64,000 nucleotides of DNA from Acidobacteriota bacterium (GTDB lineage Bacteria; Acidobacteriota; Vicinamibacteria; Vicinamibacterales; UBA8438), in contig WTFV01000150.1 in assembly GCA_011523845.1 (NCBI GenBank), positions 32,521 to 96,520 of the forward strand. The letters are read 5' to 3'. Shown one piece after another: positions 16,790 to 36,547 of the stretch. The position numbers and the translations under genes are program-made. The notes below the pieces were generated by a model, which saw only the letters and a list, made by a program, of their open reading frames with translations, was not told the origin of the DNA and ran no database searches. Numbering within the stretch: position 1 is the stretch's first letter; every line of letters begins with the position of its first letter.

Positions 16790-18562
16790 TCAGGCCGTGT
16801 ACTCGTAGTCGAACACGCACGACGCGCCAATCATCTCGCGAAACCACAACGTGGCGCGGGCGCCCTGCGAATCCGTCAGGTGAACTGGCTCGTTCAGAAC
16901 GAAACGCACCGGCTGGGTCTGGCCGTCGTTGATGGCCACGTTGTTCGCGTAGAGGTACGTGCGATCCAGCGCATCGAGCTTCGGATTGAGCCGCCCCTGA
17001 ATGCCCGGCAGATGCCGCGTTCGGTCGGCGATGACGAGCGATCCCCCGTTCGGGGCCGGCTGCAGGCGAACCTCCAGGGGCTCGCCGGGCTGATAGTCGC
17101 GCGCCACGTGCGCCATGAATCCCGTCGCGGCGCAGAACACGGTCATCGGCAGCTTGGCGTAGAGCACGAACTCGGCCCGCCCAAAGGCATCCGTCCGCGC
17201 CTCGCGATACGTCTTGTTGGGATAGAGCATCAGCACGTCGACACCCGGCAGCGGCTGGTCCGTGTCTCCGCGCCTGACCACGACGCGAACCGCGACGCCG
17301 TCGGACACCGGCAACCGCGCCGCCGGCAGGACGACCTTCAGTTCCCGCTCGCCGATCAACGTGAAGACCGGCCGTTCGCCGGCGAGGGCGAACGTCTCGT
17401 CCTGAATGACGCCGATGCCTTCGCCGCGCCGTTCGATGAAATACTGCCGCCCGCCCGCGCCCGGCACATCGCCCACCGGGCACTGGCCCAGCCGGGACGC
17501 CAGCAGCTCGTTGCGCGTGAACTGGCTGGTGCGCAGGTCGTCGGTCGTCATCGAATTGCAGAGCCCGCCCGGCGAATACAGCTCCAGCCGATCGTCGAAC
17601 ATGAACAGGCGTATCCGCGACCCCGACACCGCGTAGTCGCGATGCACCACCGCGTTGACAACCGCCTCGAAGACCGCGCGTTCGCTGAACTGCGGGACGT
17701 CGATACGCGCCGGGTCCTTGTACGCCGCCACACGCCGATTGCGGACCACGAAGCGCACCGCCTCGCGAATCTGCTCGTCGAGCGGACCGGTGACGTCCCG
17801 CGCGTCGAGTTGCCGGCCCGCGTCCATGCGGTCGCCGCTGTAACACACGGCCTGAATCCACGCGTTCGGCAACCATTCCCGCGCGTCGTCCACGGCCAGC
17901 AGCACCCCGCCGACCGTCGCCCGCAGCGCACCGTGCCGATCGTCCTTCAGGAACTTCAGCTTGGACAACGCGATCTCGGCCGGTTCGTCCATGCGCGAGC
18001 TGACATACTGGCGCCACAGCGCCGGGCGCAAGCTGCCGATCCCGGTGTTCCGCACGACCTGCGTGTCCGTCGCAGTCGCGTCGGACTGCCCCCGCGCCTG
18101 AGACAGCCGGCGGACCTCCGCGGAATCCATCTGCCGCTTCTTGTCACCCCGCCGGCGAAAGTATCCGCCGGGAGATCGGTGCACCGTTGCACTCTCCGGA
18201 ATCTCGACGACCAGCACACCACCCTTCCCGGACCCCGGCGCCTGCACCCGGAAGATGCTGAAGTCCAGCGGCGGCTTGATGCTGTCCGAACAGATCTCCG
18301 TCACCAGATTCGCCAGTGCGTCCAGTTGCGCCGGATCGAGCGACTGCGGTTGCCTGTCGTCCGATACGCCAAGGACGAGACGGCCGCCGCGGGCGTTGGC
18401 GAACGCCGCGAACTCGTCGGCAAGATCGTCGCGCCGGGGCCCTGACACACTGCTGCCGCGGAATCGAGCTTCCTTCAGCTCGAGATCCGTGTCTTCACCG
18501 AGGGCGATCTGTTTCCACAGGCGCTGTTCTTCGATTGGCATGGCCGCCGGACCACCCAGCAT
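16790..18562 (-). CDS. AlbA_2 (Schlafen-like) + HATPase_c_4 domain protein with extra C-terminal beta-rich domains
   Basis: DLELKEARF...EFAAFANARGGRLVLGV (AlbA_2), NAVVHRDYAVSGSRIRLFMFDDRLELYSPGGL (HATPase_c_4-type), then VRVVVRRGDTDQPLPGVDVLMLY...TDAFGRAEFVL (carboxypeptidase-regulatory-like). An alternative start lies at 18541 (MPIEEQ). Confidence 0.75.
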   Translation of the reverse strand: MLGGPAAMPIEEQRLWKQIALGEDTDLELKEARFRGSSVSGPRRDDLADEFAAFANARGGRLVLGVSDDRQPQSLDPAQLDALANLVTEICSDSIKPPLDFSIFRVQAPGSGKGGVLVVEIPESATVHRSPGGYFRRRGDKKRQMDSAEVRRLSQARGQSDATATDTQVVRNTGIGSLRPALWRQYVSSRMDEPAEIALSKLKFLKDDRHGALRATVGGVLLAVDDAREWLPNAWIQAVCYSGDRMDAGRQLDARDVTGPLDEQIREAVRFVVRNRRVAAYKDPARIDVPQFSERAVFEAVVNAVVHRDYAVSGSRIRLFMFDDRLELYSPGGLCNSMTTDDLRTSQFTRNELLASRLGQCPVGDVPGAGGRQYFIERRGEGIGVIQDETFALAGERPVFTLIGERELKVVLPAARLPVSDGVAVRVVVRRGDTDQPLPGVDVLMLYPNKTYREARTDAFGRAEFVLYAKLPMTVFCAATGFMAHVARDYQPGEPLEVRLQPAPNGGSLVIADRTRHLPGIQGRLNPKLDALDRTYLYANNVAINDGQTQPVRFVLNEPVHLTDSQGARATLWFREMIGASCVFDYEYTA

Positions 18563-18686
18563 TACCGCATCGCCTCACTGAGCCAGTCTCCGACGGCACG
18601 CTGCTCCCACTCCACGTACTCGCGGGGAGTTCGCCAGAATACCCTCCAAGCCTCATTGAGCAGCAGTCGACCAGATCCCTTCGTTT
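18562..18686 (-). pseudogene. Displaced 3' end (38 codons + stop) of the HExxH gene, cut off by the IS insertion
   Basis: GC-rich in-frame tail ..TKGSGRLLLNEAWRVFWRTPREYVEWEQRAVGDWLSEAMR* with no start codon. Its TAA overlaps the ATG of the AlbA_2 gene (TAATG). It joins in frame to 22092 when 18687-22091 (3405 nt) is removed. Confidence 0.8.
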
Positions 18687-18709
18687 GGGGATTATATACC
18701 GTCCTAGCC
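18679..18709. repeat. Left target-site duplication (cttcgttt, 18679-18686) + left terminal inverted repeat (18687-18709)
   Basis: IRL is ggggattatataccgtcctagcc. The reverse complement of IRR is ggggattatataccatcctagcc (22/23 match). Confidence 0.9.
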
Positions 18710-18819
18710 TAACGCTATCTCCCGAATATGCATTAGTTTATCCTGGCTGTCGTCGAGAACGGTCAACATCGGCACATGTTCGACGCAGCGCTGTCACCGG
18801 TTGTCGAGCCGTGCTCAAT

Positions 18820-19053
18820 TCAAGATAGAATGACAATTCCCCCCCCATGTATATTTCCAGTACGGTCACCGAGGCTGAATTGAACCTTAACACAGTGACC
18901 GTCCCAACCGTTACCTTCAACCTCAACATCATCAACGGCCAGCCCAATTGGTTTCTTAATGTGTTGCACACCTGCTTTCTCTCTTTTGGGTAGGTGGAAC
19001 CCTAGCACGAGCTTTGCCAGCATGTCAAGATTTCTAGCGTGCGCAGTCAGCAC
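18820..19053 (-). CDS. Hypothetical cargo ORF (77 aa), weak
   Basis: Track ORF in the AT-rich element, divergent from 19087..19668. No recognisable motif, and a competing ORF 18738..18971 overlaps it. Confidence 0.25.
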   Translation of the reverse strand: MLTAHARNLDMLAKLVLGFHLPKREKAGVQHIKKPIGLAVDDVEVEGNGWDGHCVKVQFSLGDRTGNIHGGGIVILS

Positions 19054-19086
19054 GCCGATTGAGAACCTGGACTCACGCTACTTGTA

Positions 19087-19668
19087 ATGGACAAATTCTC
19101 AAAACTAGAGTACACTCTTGAGATGAATTTCTCTGCTTTGCCAATTCGTTGGGGTGAACTTCTCTCGACTATCCTTCCTGGTGCTTGGGCATTGACGGCC
19201 ATTCTTCCGTATTTGCCGGAATTTACGGAGTGGCTATCTCAAGGCTCTCTAGCACAGGCGATGGTTATAATTGCAGCGGCAACACTCTTGGGCGGTTCTA
19301 TTAGTGGCTTCACTCGTTTTACTTGGGAATATGGTCTTTTTGCGTTTAGTGATTTCAAAGTGAAACCACTTTCTCTAGTGGTTACTGACTCAGAGAAGAT
19401 GAAATTGTATGAGTTTTTGTTGGACAATTCTTATAAATGGGTTGGGTGTCACGCCAATACTGGGTGGGCGACACTTTTGGTTTTGTTGAGTCGACTGCAA
19501 CGCTGCCCTTCCGAATTGGGAATCATAGAACTTGCATTATCTGTTGCGGTTGTGATATTATTTACAGCTTCGTATGTCCAATGGTGGATATACGTAGACC
19601 ATATGAATACTGCATTTGGCAGCAACGGAGGAGAGCATGTTCAGGAACGTACCACAGACGGGGTCTAG
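19087..19668 (+). CDS. Hypothetical integral membrane protein (about 4 TM), IS cargo
   Basis: 193-aa ORF with hydrophobic segments LLSTILPGAWALTAILPYL, AMVIIAAATLLGGSISGF, GWATLLVLLSRL and IIELALSVAVVILFTASYVQWWIY. Confidence 0.6.
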   Translation: MDKFSKLEYTLEMNFSALPIRWGELLSTILPGAWALTAILPYLPEFTEWLSQGSLAQAMVIIAAATLLGGSISGFTRFTWEYGLFAFSDFKVKPLSLVVTDSEKMKLYEFLLDNSYKWVGCHANTGWATLLVLLSRLQRCPSELGIIELALSVAVVILFTASYVQWWIYVDHMNTAFGSNGGEHVQERTTDGV

Positions 19669-19831
19669 GATTAAGGCCATCACATCTACGAGAGAATTCA
19701 AGCTAGGTGATGAGGGTACCTTGCGGGCACCGCTGGCAGACTACTACGTAGATCGCGCCGAGGATTTATTTGAGGCTGAATTCTTCGGTCGAATCATAGT
19801 AGTTCGTCGGGGTGACGTTGAGTTGACCTAA
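19637..19831 (+). CDS. Hypothetical small protein (64 aa), IS cargo
   Basis: ATG after GGAGGAG (aacggaggagagcATG): MFRNVPQTGSRIKAITSTREFKLGDEGTLRAPL... It overlaps the end of the membrane-protein gene. Confidence 0.5.
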   Translation: MFRNVPQTGSRIKAITSTREFKLGDEGTLRAPLADYYVDRAEDLFEAEFFGRIIVVRRGDVELT

Positions 19832-19877
19832 GATTCTGAACAGGGCTAGTGCGTGGCGATCCACTGGCTCTGTTGTC

Positions 19878-20813
19878 TTACTTCGCCGGTCGTGCCGTTG
19901 AAGAAAGGCCGTTCTCTCGAATAAGGTCCTTGTACCGCAATCTCTTGTCCTCAGCCAGAAACACCATCACCTGCATCTGCTCAATCGTATCCAGCGGCCG
20001 CTGGTTGTGCCGACCCTCGAATTCCTTGACATAGCGGTCCAAGTGCTTCGGGCTCATTTTGTGGTAGACCCCAATATAGCCACGCTTCATCATGCTCCAG
20101 AATGACTCCATGCCGTTCGTATGAGCTTGCTCCCTGACGTATTCTCCCGTCGAATGAGATACAGCCTCGCGATTCGGAACACCACTGTAAGTTGTCGCTG
20201 TATCTGTGTAGACCTTGGTCCCATCTTCCACATTCTCTTGAATGAAACCTTTGAGAGTCCGACCGTCGGTATTCTCAACTACCTTCGCTCTGACCCGACC
20301 CGTCCCTCGTTCCTTCATCCCAACGACAGCCGTCTTGTTGACTGGTCCTCGACCCTCCTCCTGTTTACGCTTCCACGCGTGCTTGTTCTTCGCCTTGCCA
20401 CCGAAATACCCTTCATCTACTTCAACAGCGTTCTCAAAATCACCTGCCTCTTCGTCCCGCCAGGTCTCCCGAATCCGATGCGCCAGATGCCACGCTGTCT
20501 TTTGGGTCACGCCCAGGTCCCGATGCAACTTCATCGAGGACGTCCCCTTGAGCCCAGTTGCCAGAAGGTAGAACGCCAGCGCCCAGGTCTGGAGACCCAG
20601 GTTGGAACCCTGCATGACCGTCCCAGTCTTGACGCTGAAGTGCTTCCGGCAATCTCGACACCGATAGGGCATCGGCTTTCGATTCTCGACCTTCCGAATA
20701 TTCAGCGAGCCGCACTGCGGGCACGCTATACCGTTAGGCCAGCGTGTTTCGATGAACCACTGCTCCGCGGCTTCCTCGGTGGCGAACATGCGCACGACTT
20801 CCATCAGGGTCAT
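19878..20813 (-). CDS. IS1595-family transposase (N-terminal Zn-ribbon + ISXO2-like DDE domain)
   Basis: MTLMEVVRMFATEEAAEQWFIETRWPNGIACPQCGS...YRCRDCRKHFSVKTGTVMQGSNLGLQTWALAFYL...VEVDEGYFGG...VYTDTATTYSG...HSTGEYV...HTNGMESFWSMMKRG. The longer track ORF (to 21074) runs through the tRNA and is rejected. Confidence 0.9.
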   Translation of the reverse strand: MTLMEVVRMFATEEAAEQWFIETRWPNGIACPQCGSLNIRKVENRKPMPYRCRDCRKHFSVKTGTVMQGSNLGLQTWALAFYLLATGLKGTSSMKLHRDLGVTQKTAWHLAHRIRETWRDEEAGDFENAVEVDEGYFGGKAKNKHAWKRKQEEGRGPVNKTAVVGMKERGTGRVRAKVVENTDGRTLKGFIQENVEDGTKVYTDTATTYSGVPNREAVSHSTGEYVREQAHTNGMESFWSMMKRGYIGVYHKMSPKHLDRYVKEFEGRHNQRPLDTIEQMQVMVFLAEDKRLRYKDLIRENGLSSTARPAK

Positions 20814-20977
20814 GCCCTTGCGCCAGTGCTTGCCGGGTGCGTTTCGTGCCACTGCGAGCCTCCTAGCCAGTCTAGGGGAAAGATATCGCAGTTGACAGTC
20901 CTCGACAAGCTGTTCTGGTACAGGTTTTGCTTGACTTGCAGCGGGCGGACCGGACAGACTTCGTGGCGGTGGAGGGG

Positions 20978-21061
20978 TGTGGGCGACGGGATTCGAACCC
21001 GCAAGACCTGCTGGCCAGCGGCTTTCTAGGCCGCCGCGTATTCCAGTTCCGCCACGCCCAC
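20978..21061 (-). tRNA. Class II (long variable arm) tRNA, anticodon loop CUAGAAA = apparent anticodon AGA; Leu/Ser-type body, A73, no encoded CCA
   Basis: Hand fold: GTGGGCG-TG-GCG-GAACTGGAATA-CGC-G-GCGGC-CTAGAAA-GCCGC-TGGCCAGCAGGTCTT-GCGGG-TTCGAAT-CCCGT-CGCCCAC-A. 7-bp acceptor stem, T8, A14, G18G19, canonical T-loop. Confidence 0.65.
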
Positions 21062-21460
21062 GCTGCTCCGCCATCTACTAGCTCTCATCCCTCTACCTCC
21101 TTGCCCAACATGGGCTTTGACCGTTCAATTCATTCTAGCAGAATCCTCGTGATGGTGATTGGTTTCAAGGCGAAGAAACGGCAAATGACAGGTTTCTGTC
21201 AGCGACGCCCTGTTAGCTTGACATTCATGCTTGATCTGTGGAACGCTACTCCTTGCCACGCGATTCGTGTACGACCCGACGCCGGGTCGCCCACCAAATA
21301 CAAGACTGCCCGTACGGGCAGGAATAGGTGGGGATCCCGCATGTACGTGCGCGAATCGTGTGGCAACTGGCCCGGTGACCAATTCCGGGCTGGCCCGTTG
21401 GCGTCCGTCGTCCAGGGTTTCGGTTGTCCGGAAACTCGGCGCTGGAAAGGACGTGCCACA

Positions 21461-21829
21461 ATGTTCCTTAACAGTCTACTTTATAGTGGGATTGCAGTTA
21501 TTATCGTGGTGGGTGCATATTTGTTACTTGATGGCAGAGACTTCTCTATGTCCAACTACTACTACCAAATGGGCAGAGACGATATATTGGCTGGACAGGA
21601 GTATCCTCCAGGTAGTATTTCGTGTGGAGAGTTGCCTGATGTTATTCAGCGCGTTGTAGATGAGCAGATGAGTAGTGGGGTCAATTTGGACCGTATTCGT
21701 GGCAGAATTGACGTTCAGTTTGATATGGTGAAGAATAGATGCGGAATGGGTCCAACTCGAATAGAGGGTAGTGGTTTGCCGCTAACACCCGAGGATAGAC
21801 GAAGGCGACTGCTGGAGGGTCTCCGTTAG
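21461..21829 (+). CDS. Hypothetical protein with N-terminal TM helix (122 aa), IS cargo
   Basis: MFLNSLLYSGIAVIIVVGAYLLLDGRDF...; the internal ATG of the 20927..21829 track ORF where AT-rich coding begins. Confidence 0.5.
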   Translation: MFLNSLLYSGIAVIIVVGAYLLLDGRDFSMSNYYYQMGRDDILAGQEYPPGSISCGELPDVIQRVVDEQMSSGVNLDRIRGRIDVQFDMVKNRCGMGPTRIEGSGLPLTPEDRRRRLLEGLR

Positions 21830-21880
21830 TGCTTGACTTGCGTGGTAGAATGTTGGCGGTCGAAATCAGGAGGTAGTGTG

Positions 21881-22054
21881 ATGCCGTCAAAGCTCAAGAT
21901 ACCACCCCGCATCCCGGACACTCCGGAGAACATCGCCCTAGCTTGTATGCAAGGTCCACCGAAAAAGAAATGGCGCCATCTGGAAGAGTCGGGGTTGGTG
22001 GCTGATGACCCTTCGCTCGAAGAGTACGAGGAGAAGGAGCCTTCTCGAGAGTAG
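21881..22054 (+). CDS. Hypothetical small protein (57 aa), IS cargo
   Basis: ATG after AGGAGG (aggaggtagtgtgATG): MPSKLKIPPRIPDTPENIALACMQGPPKKKWRHLEESG... Confidence 0.45.
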   Translation: MPSKLKIPPRIPDTPENIALACMQGPPKKKWRHLEESGLVADDPSLEEYEEKEPSRE

Positions 22055-22060
22055 TGGGTG

Positions 22061-22091
22061 GGCTAGGATGGTATATAATCCCCCTTCGTTT
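22061..22091. repeat. Right terminal inverted repeat (22061-22083) + right target-site duplication (cttcgttt, 22084-22091)
   Basis: ggctaggatggtatataatcccc followed by cttcgttt. The IRR supplies the last 6 codons and the TAG stop (GDYIPS*) of the truncated HExxH gene. Confidence 0.9.
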
Positions 22092-23100
22092 CCCGTCCGA
22101 CGATGTCGCAGTCCAGCGCGCGCGTACCCTCGAAAGCCAAGCCCTCAACTCGGCTGACGAGCTCTATTGGGAAGCAGCGTCGGTACTCTGGGGACGCCTC
22201 GCTGCCGCTCAACCCAAGGTACTCCTCCCACCGGCGCTCAATCGCGGCCCGCTCTTCATCAAAGCCGAGGCGTTCCAAGGCCAGAAGCATAGCCGTCATG
22301 CGCGCCGCGTCGGGTGGATGAACCGTGGGTGTCACGAGCGGAACCTCGAAGGGGTCTGCACCCACACTGGCCGCGAGGTGAAGGTGCGACCACGCAAACG
22401 CCGGACCGGCCATGTAGACGGCGTAGAGGTCACAGAAGAGTTCAATCGCCCACGAAAGCCAGCAGCCGATCCACGTCATCAAGTATTGTTTGAAGGTCTC
22501 CGGGCCTAGCCCAGCGTCCTCTTTGCGTAGCTCGCCCGCGAGGTACCCGTGGGCGTCGCTCACGGCTTCGACATGCCGCTTCTGAAAGCCCTCGAGACGC
22601 GCATCGTCTTCGAACTCCAGCAGTGAGTGCGCGAGCTCGTGGTAGAGATCCGGCAAGTGCAGCAGGAACCGCCCCTCTGCCAGCGGCACACAGACGAGCC
22701 GGAGGTCGGGGTACGTGTGGAAGTACCGCTGCGAGGCACAGGAGACCACAGGGGTTGGCAGTGGATAATGGATCTCTCCGGCCAGACGATCAGCGATCTG
22801 GTTCATCCAGCGATCTTCCGCGTTCCATCGGCACAGAGCGGTGACTGCAACCGACTCAAGGTGGTCTAGCTCACCCCGCACCCGACGAAAGAGGCGCAGG
22901 CGCTCCCGCTGATTGTCGGACTCCCTGAGTTCCGGACGATCGCGCAAGAGGCGAAGGCGCTTGCCGACTATCTTCAGGCGGTCGCGACATGCGACCTCGA
23001 GAGCAGCGACCTCCCGCCCGAGTCCGGCTGGAATCAAGTCGCACAACTGCCGGGTGCGCTCCAGCAACTGGGACACCGCCCCCTCGAAGTACTCGTTCAC
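22063..23100 (-). CDS. HExxH-motif protein (putative zincin-like), last gene of the Argonaute cassette; C-terminally truncated by the IS (345 aa now, 377 aa reconstructed)
   Basis: GTG start overlaps the upstream stop (GTGA 23097-23100). VNEYFEGAVSQLLERTRQL...; LHLPDLYHELAHSLL (H154-E-x-x-H158). Ends ..DIVGRETK + GDYIPS* encoded by the IS end. Confidence 0.75.
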   Translation of the reverse strand: MNEYFEGAVSQLLERTRQLCDLIPAGLGREVAALEVACRDRLKIVGKRLRLLRDRPELRESDNQRERLRLFRRVRGELDHLESVAVTALCRWNAEDRWMNQIADRLAGEIHYPLPTPVVSCASQRYFHTYPDLRLVCVPLAEGRFLLHLPDLYHELAHSLLEFEDDARLEGFQKRHVEAVSDAHGYLAGELRKEDAGLGPETFKQYLMTWIGCWLSWAIELFCDLYAVYMAGPAFAWSHLHLAASVGADPFEVPLVTPTVHPPDAARMTAMLLALERLGFDEERAAIERRWEEYLGLSGSEASPEYRRCFPIELVSRVEGLAFEGTRALDCDIVGRETKGDYIPS

Positions 23101-23462
23101 GTCCCAACGCCCCTCATCTTGGCGAGGGCTTCGGTTCGTCGCTCTTCCAGTCGTCGTGCGAGTTCTCGCAGCTTGTCCACGACTTCGGGGTCGACTGTGG
23201 TCGACAGCAGGGCGCGGCCTACGCATTCCCATTCCTTGCGGGCGCTCGGGTCCGCGCCACCGATGAGCATCCCCAGCCAAGCCGTGCGGAGGTCTGGTGG
23301 CGGAGCTACCGCAACACCGACCAGCAGTTCGCCGAGCTCCCGACGGGATGCATCTGTCCGTACGTCCGCCGTGGAACTCAGCCCGAGGATAACCTCGTCG
23401 ATGAGCTCGCCGTAGTCTCGCACTCGCTGGTACACGTTCGAGTGGACACCGATGTCGCTCAT
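23097..23462 (-). CDS. Hypothetical helical protein (121 aa) coupled to the Argonaute gene
   Basis: ATG overlaps the Argonaute stop (ATGA 23459-23462), preceded by GAGGAGGTGG. MSDIGVHSNVYQRVRDYGELIDEVILGL... Confidence 0.7.
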   Translation of the reverse strand: MSDIGVHSNVYQRVRDYGELIDEVILGLSSTADVRTDASRRELGELLVGVAVAPPPDLRTAWLGMLIGGADPSARKEWECVGRALLSTTVDPEVVDKLRELARRLEERRTEALAKMRGVGT

Positions 23463-25849
23463 GCCACCTCCTCGGCGGTCTCGCCGCCCACCACCGCCGC
23501 ATCTGCGAAATCGACCGCGTCTACGTCGTACTCTCCCGCCGCGGCCGCAAGGATGCGGTCGTTCAGCTTGATGGTGATCGGGTACCGGGTACAGCCCTCG
23601 GGCTGCGTCCAGGTCAGCGCAGTCAGGGAGTAGAGATCCTCCAGTGCCTCGGAAAAGGAAAGCGTGCCGTCGACCATGATGACGTGCAGCGGGTGGGCGG
23701 TGCCTTGACGGAGAAAAGGGTAGCCGGTCGAGCAGACGTACGCTTCCTGATCGCCGACGTAATATGTGGCGCCGACACTCGGGTTGTCCCCGAGCAACCC
23801 TCCACGGCCATTCGGCCGGACATCGTACAGGCGAAGCGGTACGGGTGACGACTTTGAAATTTCGATGACCGCGTAGCCGGTGTCGGGTGCGAGGCAGCCC
23901 TCTGAGCGAAGTTGGCGGATTGCACGACGGACACCGTCCAGCTCCGAGGGCCACGCCCGCCCGTCGCGGTGGACTACGACCTTGGAAAGCGGGGCGCCAC
24001 GAGCCCCCGCTTCCCTGCGCAATACCTCCACAAGATACGTCGACATCTGGGCCGCGAGCAGTCGCTCCTTCTGGCGAGACGTGTGGACGTCCGACCGGAT
24101 GTTGCTACCGTGCGCGCCGACGACCAGGAGACCGGCACTGTTGTTCTTTACGTCCACCCCGACCGTGACGTCCGCGTGAAGTGGAGTCGCAAGGACAAAC
24201 GGCCATCGCTGATTCGTCAGGAGCAGCTTCGCGATCACGACGTTACGCAAGTAGCCGGCCAGCTTTCTTCGAAGTGCCGGAACAGGCCCATAAACGACGT
24301 GACCGTCCTTGGCTCGCTCCTCGCGATAGGTGTGCCGTGGAACGTCGCTGTGGATGACGGTAGCTCGGACGTCGTGCTGTTGCCGAAGCTCCCGGACGAC
24401 CATCGCGGCAAGTTGGTCCTCGTCGCGGTTCTGTCGTCCGACGGTACGGTGCACCATGACTAGCGCATATCCGGGTCGTGAGCACTTGGCCGCCGTCGCA
24501 GCTCGCACTGCAAGAGCCTGGCGTACGAACGTCCGCTGGCCACGATCGGCATAGGGCACAATGATGGGCTTGTAGCCGCCGGGTTGAGGGAAGAACTCGT
24601 CGACAGCCTTGGAGAGATCCTCAATGAGCCGCGCGCCGATCGTATCGTAGATGCTCTCCGGAAGAATGAGATACTGCCGGTCGAGCGGCGCGGACTCATG
24701 AAAGCCCACTGTTTGGTCCCTGAGGAGCTCCAGCCTGCGGCTTCCGAAGTCGTTCGGCCTCGCTTGAACGGCTCCCCGCGTACCGCGAGCAGAAAGGACC
24801 GTATTCTTGCCGAATGCGAGATCGGGCAACTTGAAACCTTGGAGTGCGACCCGCAGTGGCTCGGTGGAGACGCGCACGCGTGCGTTTCCGAATTGAAGCG
24901 CGCGAAGGTACCGATCCACGAAGGCTCGGGTTTGGTTCCGGCGTTGATGGGGAGGCAGGATGGTTCTGCCGTGCTGGCCCGCAACCTCCTTGCTATTCGT
25001 GCGGAACACGGGATAGCACAGTGGCGCGGGCGCCGCAAGCTCAGCGCCCCGATTGTTCAGATAGAGAACGGCCGCAGAATCGGCAGGTAGGTTACCCAGA
25101 TCCGACGGAAACGGTCGGCGCGCCTGATCGAGAATGTACTCGAGCAACGACCAAGTTCTCCCCTTCGTGACGAAGCGGTATTCCTGTACGTTCCTGTCGG
25201 CCAGGGCGTGAAGATGAACCTCGTACCAGTCTTGGCCGAAGCGGTACACGCAGTTGCGACCCTTCCAGCGGGCGGCGAATTCGTTGCGTGCCAGCCGCGC
25301 CGGGAGCGGACGGGCGCTGACGTAGCAGTGGTGCACGTCGACACAGAGACCAATGCCCGCCTCGGGAGTTAAGACAGGCCGCACGCTGAAGCCCACGTAA
25401 CGATGGATGCCGCGGTCGTTCTGCGCCGGATTGCGCTCGAAGAACGGGCGTCCAGATTGCAGTTGCCAAAGCCGTGCATCGCGTCCGAGCGGGGCCTGGA
25501 CCAGGAAGCGAAGAAACCGCAGGGAGATCGCGTCATCCGGCCCTCGCTTCGAGTAGTCAAGGTCGACTCCTTCGTCACGAGGCCGAAGCTGAACGACGAC
25601 GCGCACAAGCTCGACTTCCGAGGGAAGCGTGGCGACATCTTCGGAAACGACGACGAAAGGGATATCGCCGCGTTCGATTACAAGTACAGCCTTCCTGAGC
25701 GAATAGCTGAGCCGCCGTTCGAGCGCTTGGCGATTTTGGAAGTACTCGGCTTGGTCTCGGCGCAGGCCGGCGACCTCGACGAGCCTGTACCGCGTCGACA
25801 ACTCGCCCAGGTTCGTGATGGAATAGATGTTCGTTTCAAGCTGCCTCAT
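23459..25849 (-). CDS. Long prokaryotic Argonaute (pAgo, 796 aa) with PAZ-like, MID and PIWI regions and an apparent DEDD catalytic tetrad
   Basis: From MRQLETNIYSITNLG. PIWI signatures: TVGVD566V, QKE595RLL, VVVHRD629GR, LTWTQPEG..YPITIKLND764RILA. MID/PIWI linker YLRNVVIAKLLLTNQRWPF. PAZ-like NCVYRFGQDWYEVHL...WSLLEYIL...CYPVF. Confidence 0.85.
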   Translation of the reverse strand: MRQLETNIYSITNLGELSTRYRLVEVAGLRRDQAEYFQNRQALERRLSYSLRKAVLVIERGDIPFVVVSEDVATLPSEVELVRVVVQLRPRDEGVDLDYSKRGPDDAISLRFLRFLVQAPLGRDARLWQLQSGRPFFERNPAQNDRGIHRYVGFSVRPVLTPEAGIGLCVDVHHCYVSARPLPARLARNEFAARWKGRNCVYRFGQDWYEVHLHALADRNVQEYRFVTKGRTWSLLEYILDQARRPFPSDLGNLPADSAAVLYLNNRGAELAAPAPLCYPVFRTNSKEVAGQHGRTILPPHQRRNQTRAFVDRYLRALQFGNARVRVSTEPLRVALQGFKLPDLAFGKNTVLSARGTRGAVQARPNDFGSRRLELLRDQTVGFHESAPLDRQYLILPESIYDTIGARLIEDLSKAVDEFFPQPGGYKPIIVPYADRGQRTFVRQALAVRAATAAKCSRPGYALVMVHRTVGRQNRDEDQLAAMVVRELRQQHDVRATVIHSDVPRHTYREERAKDGHVVYGPVPALRRKLAGYLRNVVIAKLLLTNQRWPFVLATPLHADVTVGVDVKNNSAGLLVVGAHGSNIRSDVHTSRQKERLLAAQMSTYLVEVLRREAGARGAPLSKVVVHRDGRAWPSELDGVRRAIRQLRSEGCLAPDTGYAVIEISKSSPVPLRLYDVRPNGRGGLLGDNPSVGATYYVGDQEAYVCSTGYPFLRQGTAHPLHVIMVDGTLSFSEALEDLYSLTALTWTQPEGCTRYPITIKLNDRILAAAAGEYDVDAVDFADAAVVGGETAEEVA

Positions 25850-26777
25850 CGGCCTTCTCCCAGCAGATCTTCTGGTACGCGCAACGCTGACAGACGTTGG
25901 GCCATGCCGTGACCGCGAAGTCTTCGGCGCGGAGGTCGCCGTTCTTGAGACCGTCCGTCGCAGCGAGCATCTCTGTCGCGCTCGCCGCCACGTAGTCCTC
26001 AAGCTCGTCGAAGTCCGCTGAATCCAAGGCATACTCGTGCTCGATTCCTGAAAGCAGTTGCGCCTCGACGAGCCGGTAGTCTGTCGGCGTAAACTCCGTC
26101 AGGACCGGCGGAAAGTCGCGGTGTGGGGTGCAGCGCGACAGCGACAGCGCGTACAGGGCCAATTGGAGCCGGTAGTCGCGAGTACCGAACGAATGGACTT
26201 TCCAGTCTACGATGAGCGGGGGCGCTTTCTCGTTGAATGCAATCACGTCGGGGACCGCGACAACCGACACGCCGGCGAATTTGAACTGCAGAGAACGCTG
26301 GGCGACCACGTACGAAGCGCGCTTCAGGGCGGCTCGCAGCCCGTCCATCTTGAACACGTTGTCAATCGCCGTTTGGATGTCCTGCCACGCCTGCGCAATC
26401 TCCTCCTGTCGTATGCCGTGGCCGTACTCGATCGCGCGGAAGGCTGCAACTGCGTCGTTCTTGGAAAGCTCCAGCGCAGGCTCGTGGATGCGATTGTTGA
26501 TCGCGAAGTCCAGCTCCCGCTCGAAGCAGACTTTGGCGGCAGTGCGGAGGTCCGCCTTCGTGATTCGCTGGCCCCGCCTCAAAGCCAGCACGAGTCTCTC
26601 GCTGAGGATTCTGTCGACGAGCCTGCCGCGCCACCCGCTCACGCTCTGGAGCTTCGAAAGGAGGTAGGCCGTCCGACGCTGCCGATCCTTGGCCACGGCG
26701 CTTGCAAGGCAATTCTTGAAGAACCAGCTCCGCTGGCACTGCCGAAAAGCACGCGCCGCCGAGAAGGACCACCTCAT
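25836..26777 (-). CDS. Cas4-like PD-(D/E)XK nuclease with four-Cys (Fe-S) signature
   Basis: 313 aa. C14 ... D177 (AVPDVIAF), D191-W-K193 (LIVDWKV), Q205xxxY209 (QLALYAL), C296-x2-C299-x5-C305. Its 3' end overlaps the pAgo start by 14 nt, and its ATG overlaps the XRE stop (ATGA). Confidence 0.8.
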   Translation of the reverse strand: MRWSFSAARAFRQCQRSWFFKNCLASAVAKDRQRRTAYLLSKLQSVSGWRGRLVDRILSERLVLALRRGQRITKADLRTAAKVCFERELDFAINNRIHEPALELSKNDAVAAFRAIEYGHGIRQEEIAQAWQDIQTAIDNVFKMDGLRAALKRASYVVAQRSLQFKFAGVSVVAVPDVIAFNEKAPPLIVDWKVHSFGTRDYRLQLALYALSLSRCTPHRDFPPVLTEFTPTDYRLVEAQLLSGIEHEYALDSADFDELEDYVAASATEMLAATDGLKNGDLRAEDFAVTAWPNVCQRCAYQKICWEKADEAA

Positions 26778-27127
26778 CTCCCCGACCTCCGCCCTTGGCG
26801 CGCGCGCAAGAACTCAAGGTACTCCGCAAGGGCCTCCTCCTCGTCAGGGGTCACGTCGCCGAAACGCGCTAGCCCCGTTGGAGCTAGCTCCCGTTCGGGA
26901 AAGCCCGGAACGGGGTAACCAGCGAGACGCATCGCCTTGGCGTACGAGACACGGTACAGCTCGCTAAGCTTGTGCAGGATGACAGGCGAAGGCTGACGGA
27001 TCCGACCGTGTTCGAGCTGGCTCAGGTAGGCGTTGGAGACATCCGTCTGTTCCTCCACCGCGCGTAGCGACATGGAGCGCCGCTCTCGTGCGTTTCTCAG
27101 GAAACCTGCCAAGGCTCCGTGACTCAT
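26774..27127 (-). CDS. XRE-family helix-turn-helix regulator, first gene of the Argonaute cassette
   Basis: LRNARERRSMSLRAVEEQTDVSNAYLSQLEHGRIRQPSPVILHKLSELY is a canonical HTH_3 pattern. 117 aa. Confidence 0.85.
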   Translation of the reverse strand: MSHGALAGFLRNARERRSMSLRAVEEQTDVSNAYLSQLEHGRIRQPSPVILHKLSELYRVSYAKAMRLAGYPVPGFPERELAPTGLARFGDVTPDEEEALAEYLEFLRARQGRRSGR

Positions 27128-27133
27128 GCGCTA

Positions 27134-27167
27134 ATCATGTCAAGCGCCGCAAAATATGTCAAGCGCC
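27134..27167 (-). promoter_or_regulatory. Putative promoter/operator of the Argonaute cassette: two 12-bp direct repeats GGCGCTTGACAT, 19 bp apart
   Basis: The minus strand reads GGCGCTTGACATattttgcGGCGCTTGACATGATtagcgcATG. The distal TTGACA lies 17 nt before CATGAT, which ends 6 nt before the ATG (possible leaderless transcript). The repeats could be XRE operators. Confidence 0.4.
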
Positions 27168-27446: not shown

Positions 27447-30227
27447 CTACGCACGCTGCACGGCTGCGCGCGTCATGGCCTGGTCGTACCACATCAGCAG
27501 CTTCGGATCCTCCTGGAGCACGTCCTCCGGGATCTTGCGAGCGACCTCGACGATCGTGGCGTAGTCCCGAGCCTGCCATGCCTTGCGGAAACCGGCGCGG
27601 ATCGCTTCCAGGCGGAACAGCTTCAGGCGTCGCTCCGTGGAATGCCGGTACTCGTCGAACTCCCGGAGCAGGCCGCGGGTTCGCCACTCGTCGAGGTCGC
27701 TCGCCTTGCGGGGATCCGGGACGTACCAGCGGTCCTTCGCCTTGGCGCGAAGGGCGAACGCGTCCTTCGGCAGGTTGCGGAGCTCCTTGAAGTTGCCGGA
27801 CAGGTAGGCGTGAATCTGGCTCGGCACCTCGCCTCGGCCATCGTACCGCAGGAAGTTCTGCTCCAGGAACGCCGACAGCTCGATCATCCGCTCGTGCTTC
27901 TGCCAGCCGCCGAGCTCGCGGATGAACTGCGGATGGATCTCCTGGAAGGTCTGCGGCTTCCTCCCAAGTTGTTGGCGCAACCACTGGATGGCGGTCTCCT
28001 CGTCCCTGACGAAGAGCTCGAGCTGCACCAGTTCGCGAGCCGCCAGCCGTCTGGAATCGTACTCCACGACCTGCTCGGGCAGGAAGAACATGCCGTCCCG
28101 CTCCGGAAAGCGTTGCGTGAGCCCTTCGTGGAATTCAGTGGCAGAGAGCGGAACGGTGACACCGCGTTGCACGTGGAAGGCGACCATGCGGTCGAACAGC
28201 AGGTAGCTCTGGCGCTCGGCGATGACCTCGGCCCGCCCTTCCCTGGCCACGAATACCGGAAGCTGGCGCATGTGGGTGCTGACGAAGTCCCAGGCGCCGT
28301 CCGCGGTCCCGGCCTGCGGTCGGAAACGGTCTTCCAGCCCGCCGTTCGGCTTGTAGGCGGAGATCACCAGATCCTGCTTGACCGCGGTGCTCGTGACCTG
28401 CCGGTAGGAACCCTGCTGCTTGTCGAGCGTGCGGACGTCGGCGACCACGAAGCCGGCCGCCAGCATGGCTTCCTGGATGGCGTTCCAGATCGCATTCCTA
28501 GAGTTGTGGAAGACGACGGTGATCCACCGGCCGGGTTTTAGGACGCGACGGTACGCTTCGAAGCAGTGCTGCATCAGGCGCTGGTAATCGACGACGTCCT
28601 TACCCTTCGGCCGGTCGACGATGGCCTCGGTCTCGCTACGCGTGCGGGTGCGGTGCCAGGATTCGACGAGGTGGTTGAGGTCGGCGTAGAAGATGTTCTC
28701 TCCGAAGGGCGGATCCGTGAACACGTAGTCGACGGAGTCGTCGGGCAGGGCGTTGGCGCCGCAATCGCTGGTCGAGATCATCGCGAGATCCGGGCGCGAA
28801 ACTGTCGGCTTGAAGGCCCTTGCGAGACGCTGCAACTTGCCATCGAGAATATACCATGGACACACTTCTGCAATTTGCGAGGCCACATAGTAGACTCCCG
28901 ACAGTTGACGATTCACCTGAGAAAAGTGGGAAGGGCCGTAGCGATTCAGTACCGACATACCCCAAATTGCCTGCTCCACGAAGAACAAGAGCATGCTTCT
29001 CAATCGGTTGTCTTCGCATTCATCTACACGCCGCCACATCGCCGCCAGCACATGCGCCGCCCGCGGCAGGAACAGGTGGTGCACATGCGTGAAGCCCTTC
29101 GGCGCCAGACGCGAGCCGTGGTACATCTCGTCGATGGGAAACGCGTCGGTTGGGACCTCGGACGGCAGCGGGAGACCGGCGATGCGGTCGAGAACGCCCA
29201 GATCGGCAGAGTCCGGTTCCTTCTCGTAGCGCGCATCGCCCACGCTGTAGTTGATCAGCACGGGCCGGAGACGAATACGTTTCCACGGCCGGCCCGACGC
29301 GGGATCGGCGAGCGTTTCGAACGACCGCACGAAGTTGTTCTTGGTCAGCTTCACGGCGCAGTGCGGACAGGGAAACGTGGATCTCGTGCGCCGGGTGGCC
29401 TTGTCGAGCGCCTCGTCGAAGAACACGACTTCGCCCGCGCAGTCCGGGCAGGAGAAGACCTCGCTCCACACCGTGTAGTTGATTCGCCCCGTGGTCCGCC
29501 CGTCGGCGTGGAGCGTGTCGTACATCCAGCCGATCTCCTCTTCGACCTCCGTCAGGAGTTCGGAGGCCGCCTCGCGGAACGCGGTGACGTCGAACGGCAG
29601 GTTGTAGTTGGCGGCGATGAAGGTGGCGGCCGGCGACAGATCGCCGAGAATCACGCGGCGGGCGCCCCATGCCGGCGGGTTCCGCTCTTCCCCCTTCCAG
29701 CGTTGTTCGAGGTCCTTCCGATAGGCGGGCGGCGCCGTGCCGCACCATTGCGCGGCGACGCCGGTCATGCCGGAGCCGCAGAATCCGTCCAGAACGATGT
29801 CACCCGGTCGCGTGTAGTGGAGGATGGACGGGACGATCGCCAGGTGCGGCACCTTGGTGTGGTACCCGTGCGCCCGATAGAGAGGGTCGGTCTTGCCGGC
29901 GCTGACGTCGACGGCGAACGGCTCGCGGTGATACGGCTCGTCGGGATCGTAGTGACGGCCGTGGCGCTCGACGAACTGCGCCAGGAACGGATTCGGACAA
30001 GCCGTGTAGTACGGCGGATCGGACAGCCGCAGGATGGCATCATCATCTGCCATCGGAAAATCGGGTCGTTGCCGCAACTCGGGTAGCTTCTCCTTCAGTC
30101 GCGCCAGGAAATACTGCCGGCGCGCCTCCTCCGACTCGAAGGTCAACCCGAGGCACTCCACGCGTGCCGATTCGCCCGTCGCGGCGGACTCCGACAGGAG
30201 ATCGGGCGTCGGATTACGGCTGGCCAC
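27447..30227 (-). CDS. pglXI: BREX type 3 DNA methyltransferase PglXI-like (N6/N4 methylase family)
   Basis: 926 aa. SD70PPYY, LDGFCGSGMTG (AdoMet motif I-like), Cys4 ribbon CPDC...CPHC, and a second catalytic-type tetrapeptide FTD505PPFG. Confidence 0.75.
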   Translation of the reverse strand: MASRNPTPDLLSESAATGESARVECLGLTFESEEARRQYFLARLKEKLPELRQRPDFPMADDDAILRLSDPPYYTACPNPFLAQFVERHGRHYDPDEPYHREPFAVDVSAGKTDPLYRAHGYHTKVPHLAIVPSILHYTRPGDIVLDGFCGSGMTGVAAQWCGTAPPAYRKDLEQRWKGEERNPPAWGARRVILGDLSPAATFIAANYNLPFDVTAFREAASELLTEVEEEIGWMYDTLHADGRTTGRINYTVWSEVFSCPDCAGEVVFFDEALDKATRRTRSTFPCPHCAVKLTKNNFVRSFETLADPASGRPWKRIRLRPVLINYSVGDARYEKEPDSADLGVLDRIAGLPLPSEVPTDAFPIDEMYHGSRLAPKGFTHVHHLFLPRAAHVLAAMWRRVDECEDNRLRSMLLFFVEQAIWGMSVLNRYGPSHFSQVNRQLSGVYYVASQIAEVCPWYILDGKLQRLARAFKPTVSRPDLAMISTSDCGANALPDDSVDYVFTDPPFGENIFYADLNHLVESWHRTRTRSETEAIVDRPKGKDVVDYQRLMQHCFEAYRRVLKPGRWITVVFHNSRNAIWNAIQEAMLAAGFVVADVRTLDKQQGSYRQVTSTAVKQDLVISAYKPNGGLEDRFRPQAGTADGAWDFVSTHMRQLPVFVAREGRAEVIAERQSYLLFDRMVAFHVQRGVTVPLSATEFHEGLTQRFPERDGMFFLPEQVVEYDSRRLAARELVQLELFVRDEETAIQWLRQQLGRKPQTFQEIHPQFIRELGGWQKHERMIELSAFLEQNFLRYDGRGEVPSQIHAYLSGNFKELRNLPKDAFALRAKAKDRWYVPDPRKASDLDEWRTRGLLREFDEYRHSTERRLKLFRLEAIRAGFRKAWQARDYATIVEVARKIPEDVLQEDPKLLMWYDQAMTRAAVQRA

Positions 30228-32091
30228 GTCGTTCGTCTTCCGGCCTGCCGAGCCGGGCGGCCTTGAGCGCGGCGCCGGCTTCAGTCAGAACGTAACGCTG
30301 AGCCGCCGCCGACGGCTTGCCCGGAATCGTCATGCGCAGGATGCCGCCTTCCAGCAACGGATCGACGTGCCGTGTCTTGAAGAGGCTGCGGTCGGTCTCG
30401 CCGATCGCCGCCATGACGTTGGCGAGGCGGCGGGGGACGTCACAGAGTTCGACAATCCGCCATTGGGTCGCCGAGAGCGTGGTCAGCAGCTTCGCCGAGT
30501 CACCGGATGGCTTAGACGATATCGGACCGTCTCCTGCCGTGGACGACTCCGCAGTCGTGGAGTTGTCACGATCAGCGGCCGCGGTGGAAGGCGCCGGAAC
30601 CGAATCGCCGCCGACGTTGGCTTGCGCAAGTCGCGTACGCAGGTGGCCGGCCATGACGTATCGGTCGCCGGCGCGTTCCAGCAGCACCTGCTTGACCAAC
30701 CGGTCTGCGACCGCAGCCGCTTCCGGGCCGGAAAGACCCGTCACCGCCTTGATGTGCGAAAGCGTCAAGTGCTGCTGGCGGCACGCGAACGCGACGGTTC
30801 GGGCCTCGTCGTCCGTGAGGCGGACACCGAGCTGTCCCTGGAACAAGAGCTGTTGTTCAGAGAGCAATGCCTCCCTGTTCAGCGCCAGCTCGAAGCTCCT
30901 GCGCCGCCGGTCGCTCAAAATCTGCGGCGGCACGTGTCCCAACTGCTGCCAGTTCCGGAACACGTCGCGCAGGCCCCACCCGGCATGCTCGCTTAGACCG
31001 ATGCGACGAAACGCGAGCACGATCCGGGGATTGCGCACCTCGCGTTCGCCGGGTTCGAGCAGGTCCGTGTCCGCGGCGAATGCGTCTCCCGGGTTCCAGA
31101 AGACCGTCTGGTCCGCATAGTGCCGGATGACCGCCTTGCGCGAATGGTCGGAGTAGTCCTGATGCATGATCAGGTTGATCATCGACTCGCGAAAGGCCCG
31201 GTAGTCCGGCGGCGTGTCGTCCCGGCGCAGCGTCGCGGGATCCAGGCGGAACGGGTGCTCCGCTACTTTCTCGTACCAGTCCTCGATGAGGGAGCGCCAC
31301 GTACGGATGAGGTTCTCGTCGAGAACGACACGGTCGAACCAGCGGTCGCCCGTGTCCGCGTCATCCCGAATCGCCGTGAACCGCTGGCAGTCCACCACGG
31401 GACGCGGCAGCAGTTGCCGAAAGGCCGGATTCGTCCCGAAGATCAGAACGGCCGCGCGCGTCGGCAGCCGCCGCCCACCCTGCTCGACCAGCAGACCCAT
31501 CTCGGCCAGGAAGTCCCCGTCGGACATCGCGGCGCACGAACGGTTCCCCGGCCTTGCCTCGTACACCGCCCGGTACCAGCGGATGGTGTCCGGGTCGAAT
31601 GCCGTGGCCGGATTCAGGTCGACGGCCTGACCGTCGGGACGTTCGGCTGCCGCGTCGATCAGGAACCCGTTGCGTTCCTGGTCCGAGCAGCGCACGTCGC
31701 TGCCGCCGCTGCGCACGAAGGCGCGGCGAATGTCGCCGTTCAGGAAAACGGGCTTCTGCGACCGATGCACTTCGGGCACGTAGAAGACGAGCAGGTCCGA
31801 TTCATCGTGCTTGTGCAGATCCTCCTCGACGTCGACCACGACGCTGATCTTGTCCGGCTGCCGCAACGTCGAGAGGAACTCGTTCTGCACCTTGTCGACG
31901 TCGAGCACGCCGACGATTTCCATCTCCCGGCCGCTCTTGCGCACGCCGAACACGAGATGTCCGCCCTCCGTGTTCGCGAACGCGGAGACCGTCTCGTATG
32001 CGTCGCGAGGCACCTTGCGTCGGGCTTCCTTGAACTCGACGTCATGCCACTCGTGCTTGCGAAGCAGCTCGATCAGTTCGTCCTGCGTCAT
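30214..32091 (-). CDS. AlbA_2 + HATPase_c_4 domain protein with C-terminal winged-helix region (paralogue class of 16790..18562)
   Basis: MTQDELIELLRKHEWHDVEFKEARRKVP...VSAFANTEGGHLVFGV; NLIMHQDYSDHSRKAVIRHY. The 3' end overlaps the pglXI start by 14 nt. The track ORF N-terminal extension (to 32205) is rejected. Confidence 0.75.
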   Translation of the reverse strand: MTQDELIELLRKHEWHDVEFKEARRKVPRDAYETVSAFANTEGGHLVFGVRKSGREMEIVGVLDVDKVQNEFLSTLRQPDKISVVVDVEEDLHKHDESDLLVFYVPEVHRSQKPVFLNGDIRRAFVRSGGSDVRCSDQERNGFLIDAAAERPDGQAVDLNPATAFDPDTIRWYRAVYEARPGNRSCAAMSDGDFLAEMGLLVEQGGRRLPTRAAVLIFGTNPAFRQLLPRPVVDCQRFTAIRDDADTGDRWFDRVVLDENLIRTWRSLIEDWYEKVAEHPFRLDPATLRRDDTPPDYRAFRESMINLIMHQDYSDHSRKAVIRHYADQTVFWNPGDAFAADTDLLEPGEREVRNPRIVLAFRRIGLSEHAGWGLRDVFRNWQQLGHVPPQILSDRRRRSFELALNREALLSEQQLLFQGQLGVRLTDDEARTVAFACRQQHLTLSHIKAVTGLSGPEAAAVADRLVKQVLLERAGDRYVMAGHLRTRLAQANVGGDSVPAPSTAAADRDNSTTAESSTAGDGPISSKPSGDSAKLLTTLSATQWRIVELCDVPRRLANVMAAIGETDRSLFKTRHVDPLLEGGILRMTIPGKPSAAAQRYVLTEAGAALKAARLGRPEDERRGQP

Positions 32092-32125
32092 GCCGTCGTT
32101 CCGAGACGATTCGCATCCTGCCGGA

Positions 32126-32512
32126 TCACGCCGCCTCGACGTCGGTGCGAGCGAAGTCGTCGCCCTTGAACAGCAGCGGTTCGCCGGTGGCCTTCGCCAA
32201 CGCATAGGCGAGACAGTCGCCGAAGTTCAACGCCGCCCGATGATTGCCCTTGCCGAATCGCCGCCAGGCGCGGCGGGCGACCTCGACGTGTTCCGGCGTG
32301 ACCGGCGCCAACTCGATCTCCGCCTTGTCCAGAAACATGTCGAGTTGACGTCCCGCCGCGGCTCCCGCCCTGCCCTCGACAACCATGGTTGCTTCGAGCA
32401 GGGCGACCGCCGACATGCGCCTGGGCCACGCCGCCGAGATTGCCTGTTCGTAGTGCGTCGCGTCCGATTCGCCGAACAGGATGGCCATGATCGCCGACGT
32501 GTCGATGATCAC
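32126..32512 (-). CDS. vapC: VapC PIN-domain toxin
   Basis: MIIDTSAIMAILFGE... (PIN Asp4) ...FGDCLAYALA. GTG start overlaps the vapB stop (GTGA). Confidence 0.9.
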   Translation of the reverse strand: MIIDTSAIMAILFGESDATHYEQAISAAWPRRMSAVALLEATMVVEGRAGAAAGRQLDMFLDKAEIELAPVTPEHVEVARRAWRRFGKGNHRAALNFGDCLAYALAKATGEPLLFKGDDFARTDVEAA

Positions 32513-36516: not shown

Positions 36517-36547
36517 TTCCGTTCCAGTGGTGTGCCGACGACCAACC

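Follow-up and report, generated by a model that had tools for sequence, protein, structure and literature searches.

What kind of Argonaute carries a complete catalytic site and no recognisable canonical pocket for the 5′ end of its guide? The question is raised by a gene on the minus strand of a 64,000-nucleotide stretch of Acidobacteriota DNA (contig WTFV01000150.1, the whole of which we call the window), where an intact open reading frame (ORF) at 23459-25849 encodes a protein of 796 amino acids. A sequence-only reading of this DNA had described the product as a full-length prokaryotic Argonaute (pAgo) with a DEDD tetrad, had found no Tyr/Lys/Gln trio in its MID domain and suspected an unusual 5′-end specificity. 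The odd pocket is real, and it is a variant that has already been known since 2022, namely that of PliAgo from Pseudooceanicola lipolyticus, the type of a novel pAgo class whose members employ small DNA guides for cleaving RNA ('D-R' pAgos; Lisitskaya et al. 2022, PMC9360449). In our judgement the best explanation of the data, and very probably the right one, is that the window gene encodes an intact, catalytically complete long Argonaute of the PliAgo group. On this view the enzyme should cut RNA under the direction of DNA guides, and proteins of this type are of interest as programmable RNA tools.

The extent of the gene can be fixed by comparison with its relatives. The minus-strand reading frame is open for 857 codons (23459-26032), the first 61 of which form an Arg-rich, non-homologous leader. 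Close relatives all start at the same MxxLETN, which begins at 25849 in the window; because the relatives begin there and the leader has no counterpart among them, we place the start of the pAgo at 25849 and not at 26032. When the protein was compared with all PDB sequences using phmmer, the best match was PliAgo (7R8F-7R8K, E-value 4e-143), with residues 4-785 of the query aligned to residues 3-783 of the chain, that is, end to end through the N, PAZ, MID and PIWI domains. Further matches were to MbpAgo (8XIH/9WMD, 6e-60), VbAgo (8e-28) and KmAgo (7e-6), and no chain of TtAgo, CbAgo or MpAgo was found at E ≤ 1. The pAgo_II model of PADLOC matches the protein at 4e-271, and the Pfam Piwi match is sub-threshold (E 4e-4). 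The protein is 35% identical to P0106, a PliAgo-like representative, and 33.5% identical to RslAgo, and the window pAgo and PliAgo have an acidic C-terminal tail in common. As judged from these alignments, the similarity to PliAgo is far beyond chance.

Is the enzyme likely to cut? A motif search of the window pAgo located GVDV at residues 564-567, QKER at 593-596, HRDG at 627-630 and LNDR at 762-765, which give the tetrad D566, E595, D629 and D764 with spacings of 29, 34 and 135 residues, exactly as the sequence-only reading had stated. The codons, all within 23558-24154 on the minus strand, were re-read and checked: D566 at 24152-24154, E595 at 24065-24067, D629 at 23963-23965 and D764 at 23558-23560. 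To relate these residues to a solved structure we used the sequence alignment to PliAgo, counting back from the numbered ends of its rows. In the phmmer alignment the four residues pair one-to-one with D563, E592, D626 and D762 of PliAgo, so no position of the tetrad is occupied by a non-acidic residue; in PliAgo, mutation of the first and third of these abolished cleavage (PMC9360449). An alignment of 52 relatives that covers 31-91% identity shows D, E, D and D to be invariant. Two lysines nearby follow the same pattern. K568 (24146-24148) and K761 (23567-23569), both on the minus strand with checked codons, are aligned to K565 and K759 of PliAgo; the first is invariant in all 52 relatives and the second is a lysine in 46. 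In PliAgo, K759 contacts the third guide phosphate, at a position where canonical pAgos have a histidine (PMC9360449), and K565 serves in recognition of the target backbone and as a gate for the glutamate finger (PMC10772731). Two further residues, F115 and Y209, are aligned to F116 and Y209 of PliAgo. That the window pAgo should be catalytically competent is well supported by homology.

The MID domain is where the protein departs from the better known pAgos. According to the PliAgo/TtAgo correspondences published in PMC9360449, no residue of the (Y/H/R)KQK motif is present in the PliAgo group, and PliAgo has A479, C483 and G542 where TtAgo has R418, K422 and K457. Combining these structural equivalences with our alignment, the canonical positions of the window pAgo are A481 (24407-24409), V485 (24395-24397) and T545 (24215-24217), all on the minus strand within 24215-24409, and the (Y/H/R)KQK motif was not found at these positions in the alignment to PliAgo. 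The impression of a missing Tyr/Lys/Gln trio was thus accurate: the two MID strings on which it was based lie at residues 479-500 and 536-544, contain A481 and V485 and stop one residue before T545.

These results bear on the simplest alternative, that the protein is an ordinary DNA-guided, DNA-cutting pAgo like TtAgo or CbAgo, with a YKQK pocket that was overlooked or mis-aligned by eye. The window pAgo does have a DEDD tetrad and the length of a long pAgo in common with these enzymes, as well as the bilobed architecture and DEDX catalytic site typical of them. However, the aligned motif positions hold Ala, Val and Thr, neither TtAgo nor CbAgo is matched at the threshold at which PliAgo scores 4e-143, and the MID segment alone (residues 400-560) has PliAgo as its sole match in the PDB (4.8e-18; MbpAgo follows at 0.29). 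TtAgo and CbAgo further differ in a (Y/H/R)KQK pocket that uses Mg2+ and the C-terminal carboxylate, in DNA targets, in a cut at 10′/11′, and in a histidine where the PliAgo group and the window pAgo have a lysine, here K761 (PMC9360449). Together with the phylogenetic placement inside the PliAgo-type clade described below, this leaves the overlooked-motif explanation with next to no chance of being correct.

If the canonical pocket is gone, what holds the guide? In PliAgo the 5′-phosphate is bound by R467, H498, S501 and Y530 (the 'RHSY' pocket), with the His and Tyr absolutely conserved in the group (PMC9360449). The aligned residues of the window pAgo, within 24251-24448 on the minus strand, are R468 (24446-24448), H500 (24350-24352), V503 (24341-24343) and Y533 (24251-24253); three of the four contacts are therefore kept. 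Those kept include both residues of the PliAgo R467A/Y530A double mutant, in which guide binding was abolished (PMC9360449). Both Mg2+ and the C-terminal carboxylate are dispensable for the PliAgo pocket, and the protein tolerates the loss of its C-terminal 18 residues as well as a C-terminal fusion to green fluorescent protein (GFP); guide nucleotide 1 is stacked on nucleotide 2, and the cut is shifted to 9′/10′ (PMC9360449). RslAgo, like PliAgo, takes 5′-phosphorylated DNA guides and cleaves RNA with the register displaced by one nucleotide, its pocket holding neither Mg2+ nor the C-terminus. Taken together, all defining features of the PliAgo group that can be read at the level of sequence are present in the window pAgo.

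To place the protein in a phylogeny, relatives were drawn from a representative library of 1.84 billion proteins, in which there were 233 matches at E ≤ 1e-30. A quick FastTree tree, without bootstraps, was built from 107 full-length relatives including RslAgo; RslAgo and the PliAgo-like representative P0106 served as alignment anchors for the PliAgo type, with pockets of K480-H512-T515-Y541 in the former and a pocket string of R-A-C-H-S-Y-G in the latter. H500 and Y533 with no Lys at position 485, the PliAgo type, were found in 71 of the 107 relatives. A further 35 form a sister set, with His at position 481 in 33 and Lys at 485 in all 35, which is the HKQK type of PnyAgo and MbpAgo. The PliAgo-type set makes up one side of a branch with a support of 99, the pocket type changes once on the tree, and the window pAgo is nested inside this set, its nearest relatives being metagenomic proteins and a protein of a Bryobacteraceae metagenome-assembled genome (MAG). 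The family occurs in at least 98 species-level genomes, of which the 80 that were kept span at least 10 bacterial phyla and one archaeon. In size and distribution it goes well beyond the 14 members that were first listed for the PliAgo group (Lisitskaya et al. 2022, PMC9360449).

With this wider sampling the description of the pocket can be refined. H500 and Y533 are present in all 71 PliAgo-type cluster representatives, and the other two positions vary: the first is Arg in 27, Lys in 5, His in 7 and Asp or Glu in 20, and the third is Val in 21, Thr in 18 and Ser in only 10. The pocket of the family, as far as the alignment reveals it, is thus x-H-x-Y, and only the His and Tyr of 'RHSY' are fixed, which goes beyond the 2022 description, as does the wider family itself. 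The position of K568 behaves as a second clade-specific marker beside the pocket, at least in the sequences compared, with Lys in 67 of the 71 PliAgo-type representatives vs Leu in 27 of the 35 members of the HK-type sister group. The full tetrad is present in 68 of the 71. Altered tetrads (D-E-Q-D, D-E-N-D, D-D-D-D) were seen in a few PliAgo-type representatives, P0103, P0104, P0135 and P0078; judging by these residues, inactive or altered variants exist within an otherwise active clade.

The sequence-only reading had proposed either a 5′-OH-type pocket or another variant pocket. The second part of this proposal has held up, and the first has not. Could the pocket still be specific for 5′-OH, as in MpAgo from Marinitoga piezophila, or insensitive to the 5′ group, with unphosphorylated guides being used? 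The neutral residues at the canonical positions (A481, V485 and T545), the loss of one phosphate contact in the change from Ser to V503, and the acidic residue at the first pocket position of 20 representatives, which indicates that phosphate contacts vary within the family, are all in keeping with such a view. The related MbpAgo (the protein of PDB entry 9WMD) takes both 5′-P and 5′-OH guides (PMC13346755), and MpAgo, which is guided by 5′-OH RNA, likewise has no polar phosphate-binding residues at the canonical positions and no Mg2+ there (PMC9360449). Against this, PliAgo binds 5′-P guide DNA more than 25-fold better than 5′-OH guide DNA and cuts imprecisely with 5′-OH guides, and the MpAgo pocket, unlike the PliAgo type, is a derivative of the canonical one, with which it can be aligned, and goes with a normal guide register and cleavage site (PMC9360449). 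MpAgo showed no detectable similarity to the window pAgo in the PDB sequence searches, whether with the full length or with the MID segment. Since the window pAgo keeps the Arg, His and Tyr that contact the 5′-phosphate in PliAgo, we consider a 5′-OH-type or indifferent pocket quite improbable. The co-encoded nuclease points in the same direction, as PD-(D/E)XK nucleases generally leave 5′-phosphates.

We propose, by homology with PliAgo, that the window pAgo loads small 5′-phosphorylated single-stranded DNA guides and cleaves complementary RNA. The guide 5′-phosphate would be held by R468, H500 and Y533 of the MID domain, and not by a Mg2+-dependent (Y/H/R)KQK pocket with the C-terminal carboxylate. 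Nucleotide 1 of the guide would stack on nucleotide 2, and the resulting shift in register is expected to place the cut between 9′ and 10′, as in PliAgo. Cutting itself would be carried out by the RNase-H-type DEDD site of the PIWI domain, formed by D566, E595 (the glutamate finger), D629 and D764. The DNA guides are most likely provided or trimmed by a Cas4-like nuclease, whose gene lies immediately upstream. The sequence-only reading did not anticipate that the assayed proteins of this group are guided by DNA and cleave RNA instead of DNA; the term 'long-A', which it had used, is absent from the text of PMC9360449.

Several points weigh against this assignment or limit how far it can be taken. 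The fourth PliAgo contact, S501, is replaced by V503, and R271 of the PliAgo PAZ domain, which sandwiches the 3′ nucleotide of the guide, is a Leu in the window pAgo (Arg in 32 of the 52 relatives). Guide type, target type and register are predicted from homology, and at an identity of 35% the specificity could have changed. Searches in the text of PMC9360449 yielded no residue-level determinant for the choice of RNA over DNA targets, and for this reason the RNA-target preference is unreadable from the sequence. Lastly, the final gene of the operon is truncated by an insertion sequence (IS), which makes function in vivo uncertain. The biochemistry would be read across from two assayed members, PliAgo and RslAgo, which bracket the clade only loosely.

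How do the named systems compare? PliAgo and the window pAgo are alike in their end-to-end alignment, the DEDD tetrad, the replacement of the (Y/H/R)KQK pocket, the Arg, His and Tyr of the new pocket, the equivalents of K759 and K565, and an upstream Cas4-like nuclease with a helix-turn-helix (HTH) regulator. They are only about 35% identical and differ in the Val for Ser and the Leu for R271, and in host; moreover, the window gene lies inside a BREX locus. RslAgo from Runella slithyformis belongs to the same group and is a DNA-guided RNA cutter by experiment; we confirmed that WP_013921749.1 is the RslAgo of PMC9360449. The same five genes are annotated around it as in the window operon, whereas it is borne on a conjugative plasmid (pRUNSL03), is 33.5% identical to the window pAgo as given above, and has Lys and Thr at pocket positions 1 and 3 where the window pAgo has Arg and Val. 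The sister clade holds PnyAgo, HpeAgo and MbpAgo, which are HKQK-type DNA-guided RNA cutters, also with a DEDD site, and in one plasmid example of this type the neighbouring genes again encode the nuclease, the small protein and the HExxH protein. In contrast to the window pAgo, these proteins keep the His and Lys of the canonical pocket; they also need Mg2+ for guide binding, cut at 10′/11′ and have a sigma factor in place of the HTH regulator (PMC9360449).

None of our additions to the 2022 description changes the kind of system, and the assignment is as ordinary as it is solid. The open interest lies not in the pocket but in two partner genes of the operon. The operon consists of five translationally coupled genes on the minus strand, with the pAgo in third place; they encode an HTH regulator, a nuclease, the pAgo, a protein of 121 amino acids and an HExxH protein. 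In a tblastn comparison with 80 related loci from species-level genomes, genes for the HTH regulator, the nuclease and the HExxH protein were found in 74, 77 and 75, respectively; gene order is unchanged in all of these, and the genes share the strand of the pAgo. The text of PMC9360449 names only the nuclease and the regulator as operon partners of PliAgo, and a search of the literature found nothing that joins an Argonaute, a Cas4-like nuclease and a metalloprotease.

The first gene (26774-27127, minus strand) encodes an XRE-type HTH regulator of 117 amino acids (Pfam HTH_31, 1e-10; PADLOC capH-like, 3.9e-07). A consensus scan found a putative promoter in front of it, a TG-extended TTGACA-17-CATGAT at 27134-27162 on the minus strand, one such site being found where 0.1 were expected. 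This site ends 7 nucleotides before the HTH start codon, which suggests a near-leaderless transcript for the regulator.

The second gene (25836-26777, minus strand) encodes the Cas4-like PD-(D/E)XK nuclease, which has 313 amino acids (Pfam PDDEXK_1, 2.8e-14; PADLOC Aga_Cas4-like_Nuc, 1.6e-112), and its last 14 nucleotides overlap the start of the pAgo. The protein carries D177, D191-x-K193, Q205xxxY209 and the cysteines C14, C296, C299 and C305. A metagenomic protein of 1104 amino acids (P0037), 47% identical to the window pAgo, is a fusion of a PD-(D/E)XK nuclease to a pAgo, a hint that the two may act jointly. Lisitskaya et al. (PMC9360449) had earlier suggested that the Cas4-like nuclease may process guides, and the fusion lends support to this plausible role.

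The fourth gene (23097-23462, minus strand), whose ATG overlaps the pAgo stop codon (ATGA), encodes the all-helical protein of 121 amino acids, and a small ORF of similar length (about 116-139 amino acids) is found at the same position in 68 related loci. The AlphaFold2 (AF2) model is a five-helix bundle with a predicted local distance difference test (pLDDT) score of 85.7, for which a Foldseek search against the PDB gave no significant match. At the junction with the pAgo (23459-23475), many close relatives end in ...EEVA, and the codons concerned, GAGGAGGTGGCATGA, include both a Shine-Dalgarno sequence (GGAGG) and the start codon (ATG) of the following gene, so that conservation at the pAgo C-terminus may reflect translational coupling rather than protein function.

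In three loci (L002:6001-8757, L003:6001-8757 and L011:6001-8727), two of them from Blastocatellia/Pyrinomonadaceae MAGs and one from a Planctomycetota MAG, the pAgo reading frame continues without a stop into the 121-residue protein, giving fusion products of 908-918 amino acids. A hidden Markov model (HMM) of the small protein matches the C-termini of these fusions at about 1e-40. Such natural C-terminal fusions, which are a further addition to the 2022 description, fit the tolerance of PliAgo to C-terminal truncation and GFP fusion, and they give independent in vivo, if indirect, support to the idea that the C-terminus is free, and outside the guide pocket, in the PliAgo clade. Since the pocket no longer needs the carboxylate, and three relatives are fused in this way, one may speculate that the freed C-terminus docks the 121-residue protein and so links the pAgo to the HExxH zincin. 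The pAgo would then be the RNA-sensing subunit of a nuclease/protease defence complex and not a stand-alone slicer, and the R-H-V-Y variant of the pocket might also alter guide register or 5′-end tolerance relative to PliAgo. We regard this elaboration of the PliAgo-group assignment as unlikely in its entirety.

The fifth gene encodes the HExxH protein, the 5′ part of which, about 339 codons, lies at 22084-23100 on the minus strand with a GTG that overlaps the previous stop codon (GTGA). Across 60 sequences there is no variation at H154-E155-x-x-H158, E220, D224 or H261. The AF2 model of an orthologue reached a pLDDT of 96, and Foldseek gave no significant match to it in the PDB. With VIA-align, the similarity of the same model to M13 zinc peptidases was only moderate (Z 8.0 over 183 residues), and the ESM Atlas returned its own unnamed family together with weak zincin neighbours (M48 with a TM-score of 0.43, SprT-like, M78/ArdC and M32). 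The label 'zincin-like' is thus supported mainly by the invariant HExxH. We also considered the protein as an ImmA/IrrE or CapP-like protease that cuts the XRE/CapH-like regulator. This was rejected as the principal interpretation because neither Pfam nor PADLOC gave an M78 match for the HExxH protein, and because the last two genes of the operon, the HExxH gene among them, also occur in an HK-type operon that has no HTH regulator. Elsewhere in the family, the small gene and the HExxH gene of a Bradyrhizobium chromosome (L060:8364-10361) are parted by about 1.6 kb with an ORF of 422 amino acids, and the HExxH ORF of a Steroidobacteraceae MAG (L077:8726-9280) ends after 184 amino acids.

In the window, the HExxH gene is split after about codon 339 by an IS1595-family element of 3397 bp (18687-22083; GC content 0.52; transposase with Pfam DDE_Tnp_IS1595, 3.6e-38). 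The element has terminal inverted repeats of 23 nucleotides and is flanked by a perfect 8-bp target duplication, CTTCGTTT, at 18679-18686 and 22084-22091. The displaced 3′ end of the gene was located by tblastn of orthologues at 18562-18686 on the minus strand, where it encodes the conserved LLNxAW..FW..P..Y..WE tail and still has a terminal TAATG, which overlaps the start of the gene that follows. Joining the two pieces in silico gives an ORF of 377 amino acids with the tail of the family.

Is the defence system then switched off, or decaying, in this strain, with an intact enzyme left behind? The conserved C-terminal tail of the last gene has been moved 3.4 kb away by an element with intact repeats and a perfect duplication, and the HExxH gene, which stands beside the pAgo in 75 of the 80 loci and is found in both D-R groups, looks as if it were needed. 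On the other hand, the regulator, nuclease, pAgo and 121-residue genes remain whole and have kept their translational coupling; the insertion, which looks recent, is at the 3′ end, where expression of the pAgo need not suffer from it; and PliAgo and RslAgo show activity by themselves in vitro (PMC9360449). We hold a silenced or decaying system to be possible, if somewhat doubtful. It concerns the system in vivo and is compatible with the assignment of the enzyme to the PliAgo group: the enzyme is probably active, and with its last gene broken the complete system may not be.

The operon probably reached this genome by horizontal transfer, since its GC content is 0.63 vs 0.71 in the surrounding chromosome, and the pAgo was found in none of 60 related genomes searched, 14 of which are of the same genus. 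The operon lies between the BREX genes pglX (27447-30227) and pglZ (14747-16759), with brxC at 32809-36564; the PADLOC scores are 5e-266 for PglZ and an E-value of 0 for both PglX/PglXI and BrxC. Two AlbA_2/HATPase_c_4 genes are located at 16790-18562 and 30214-32205, and it is the start of the first of these that the displaced HExxH tail overlaps.

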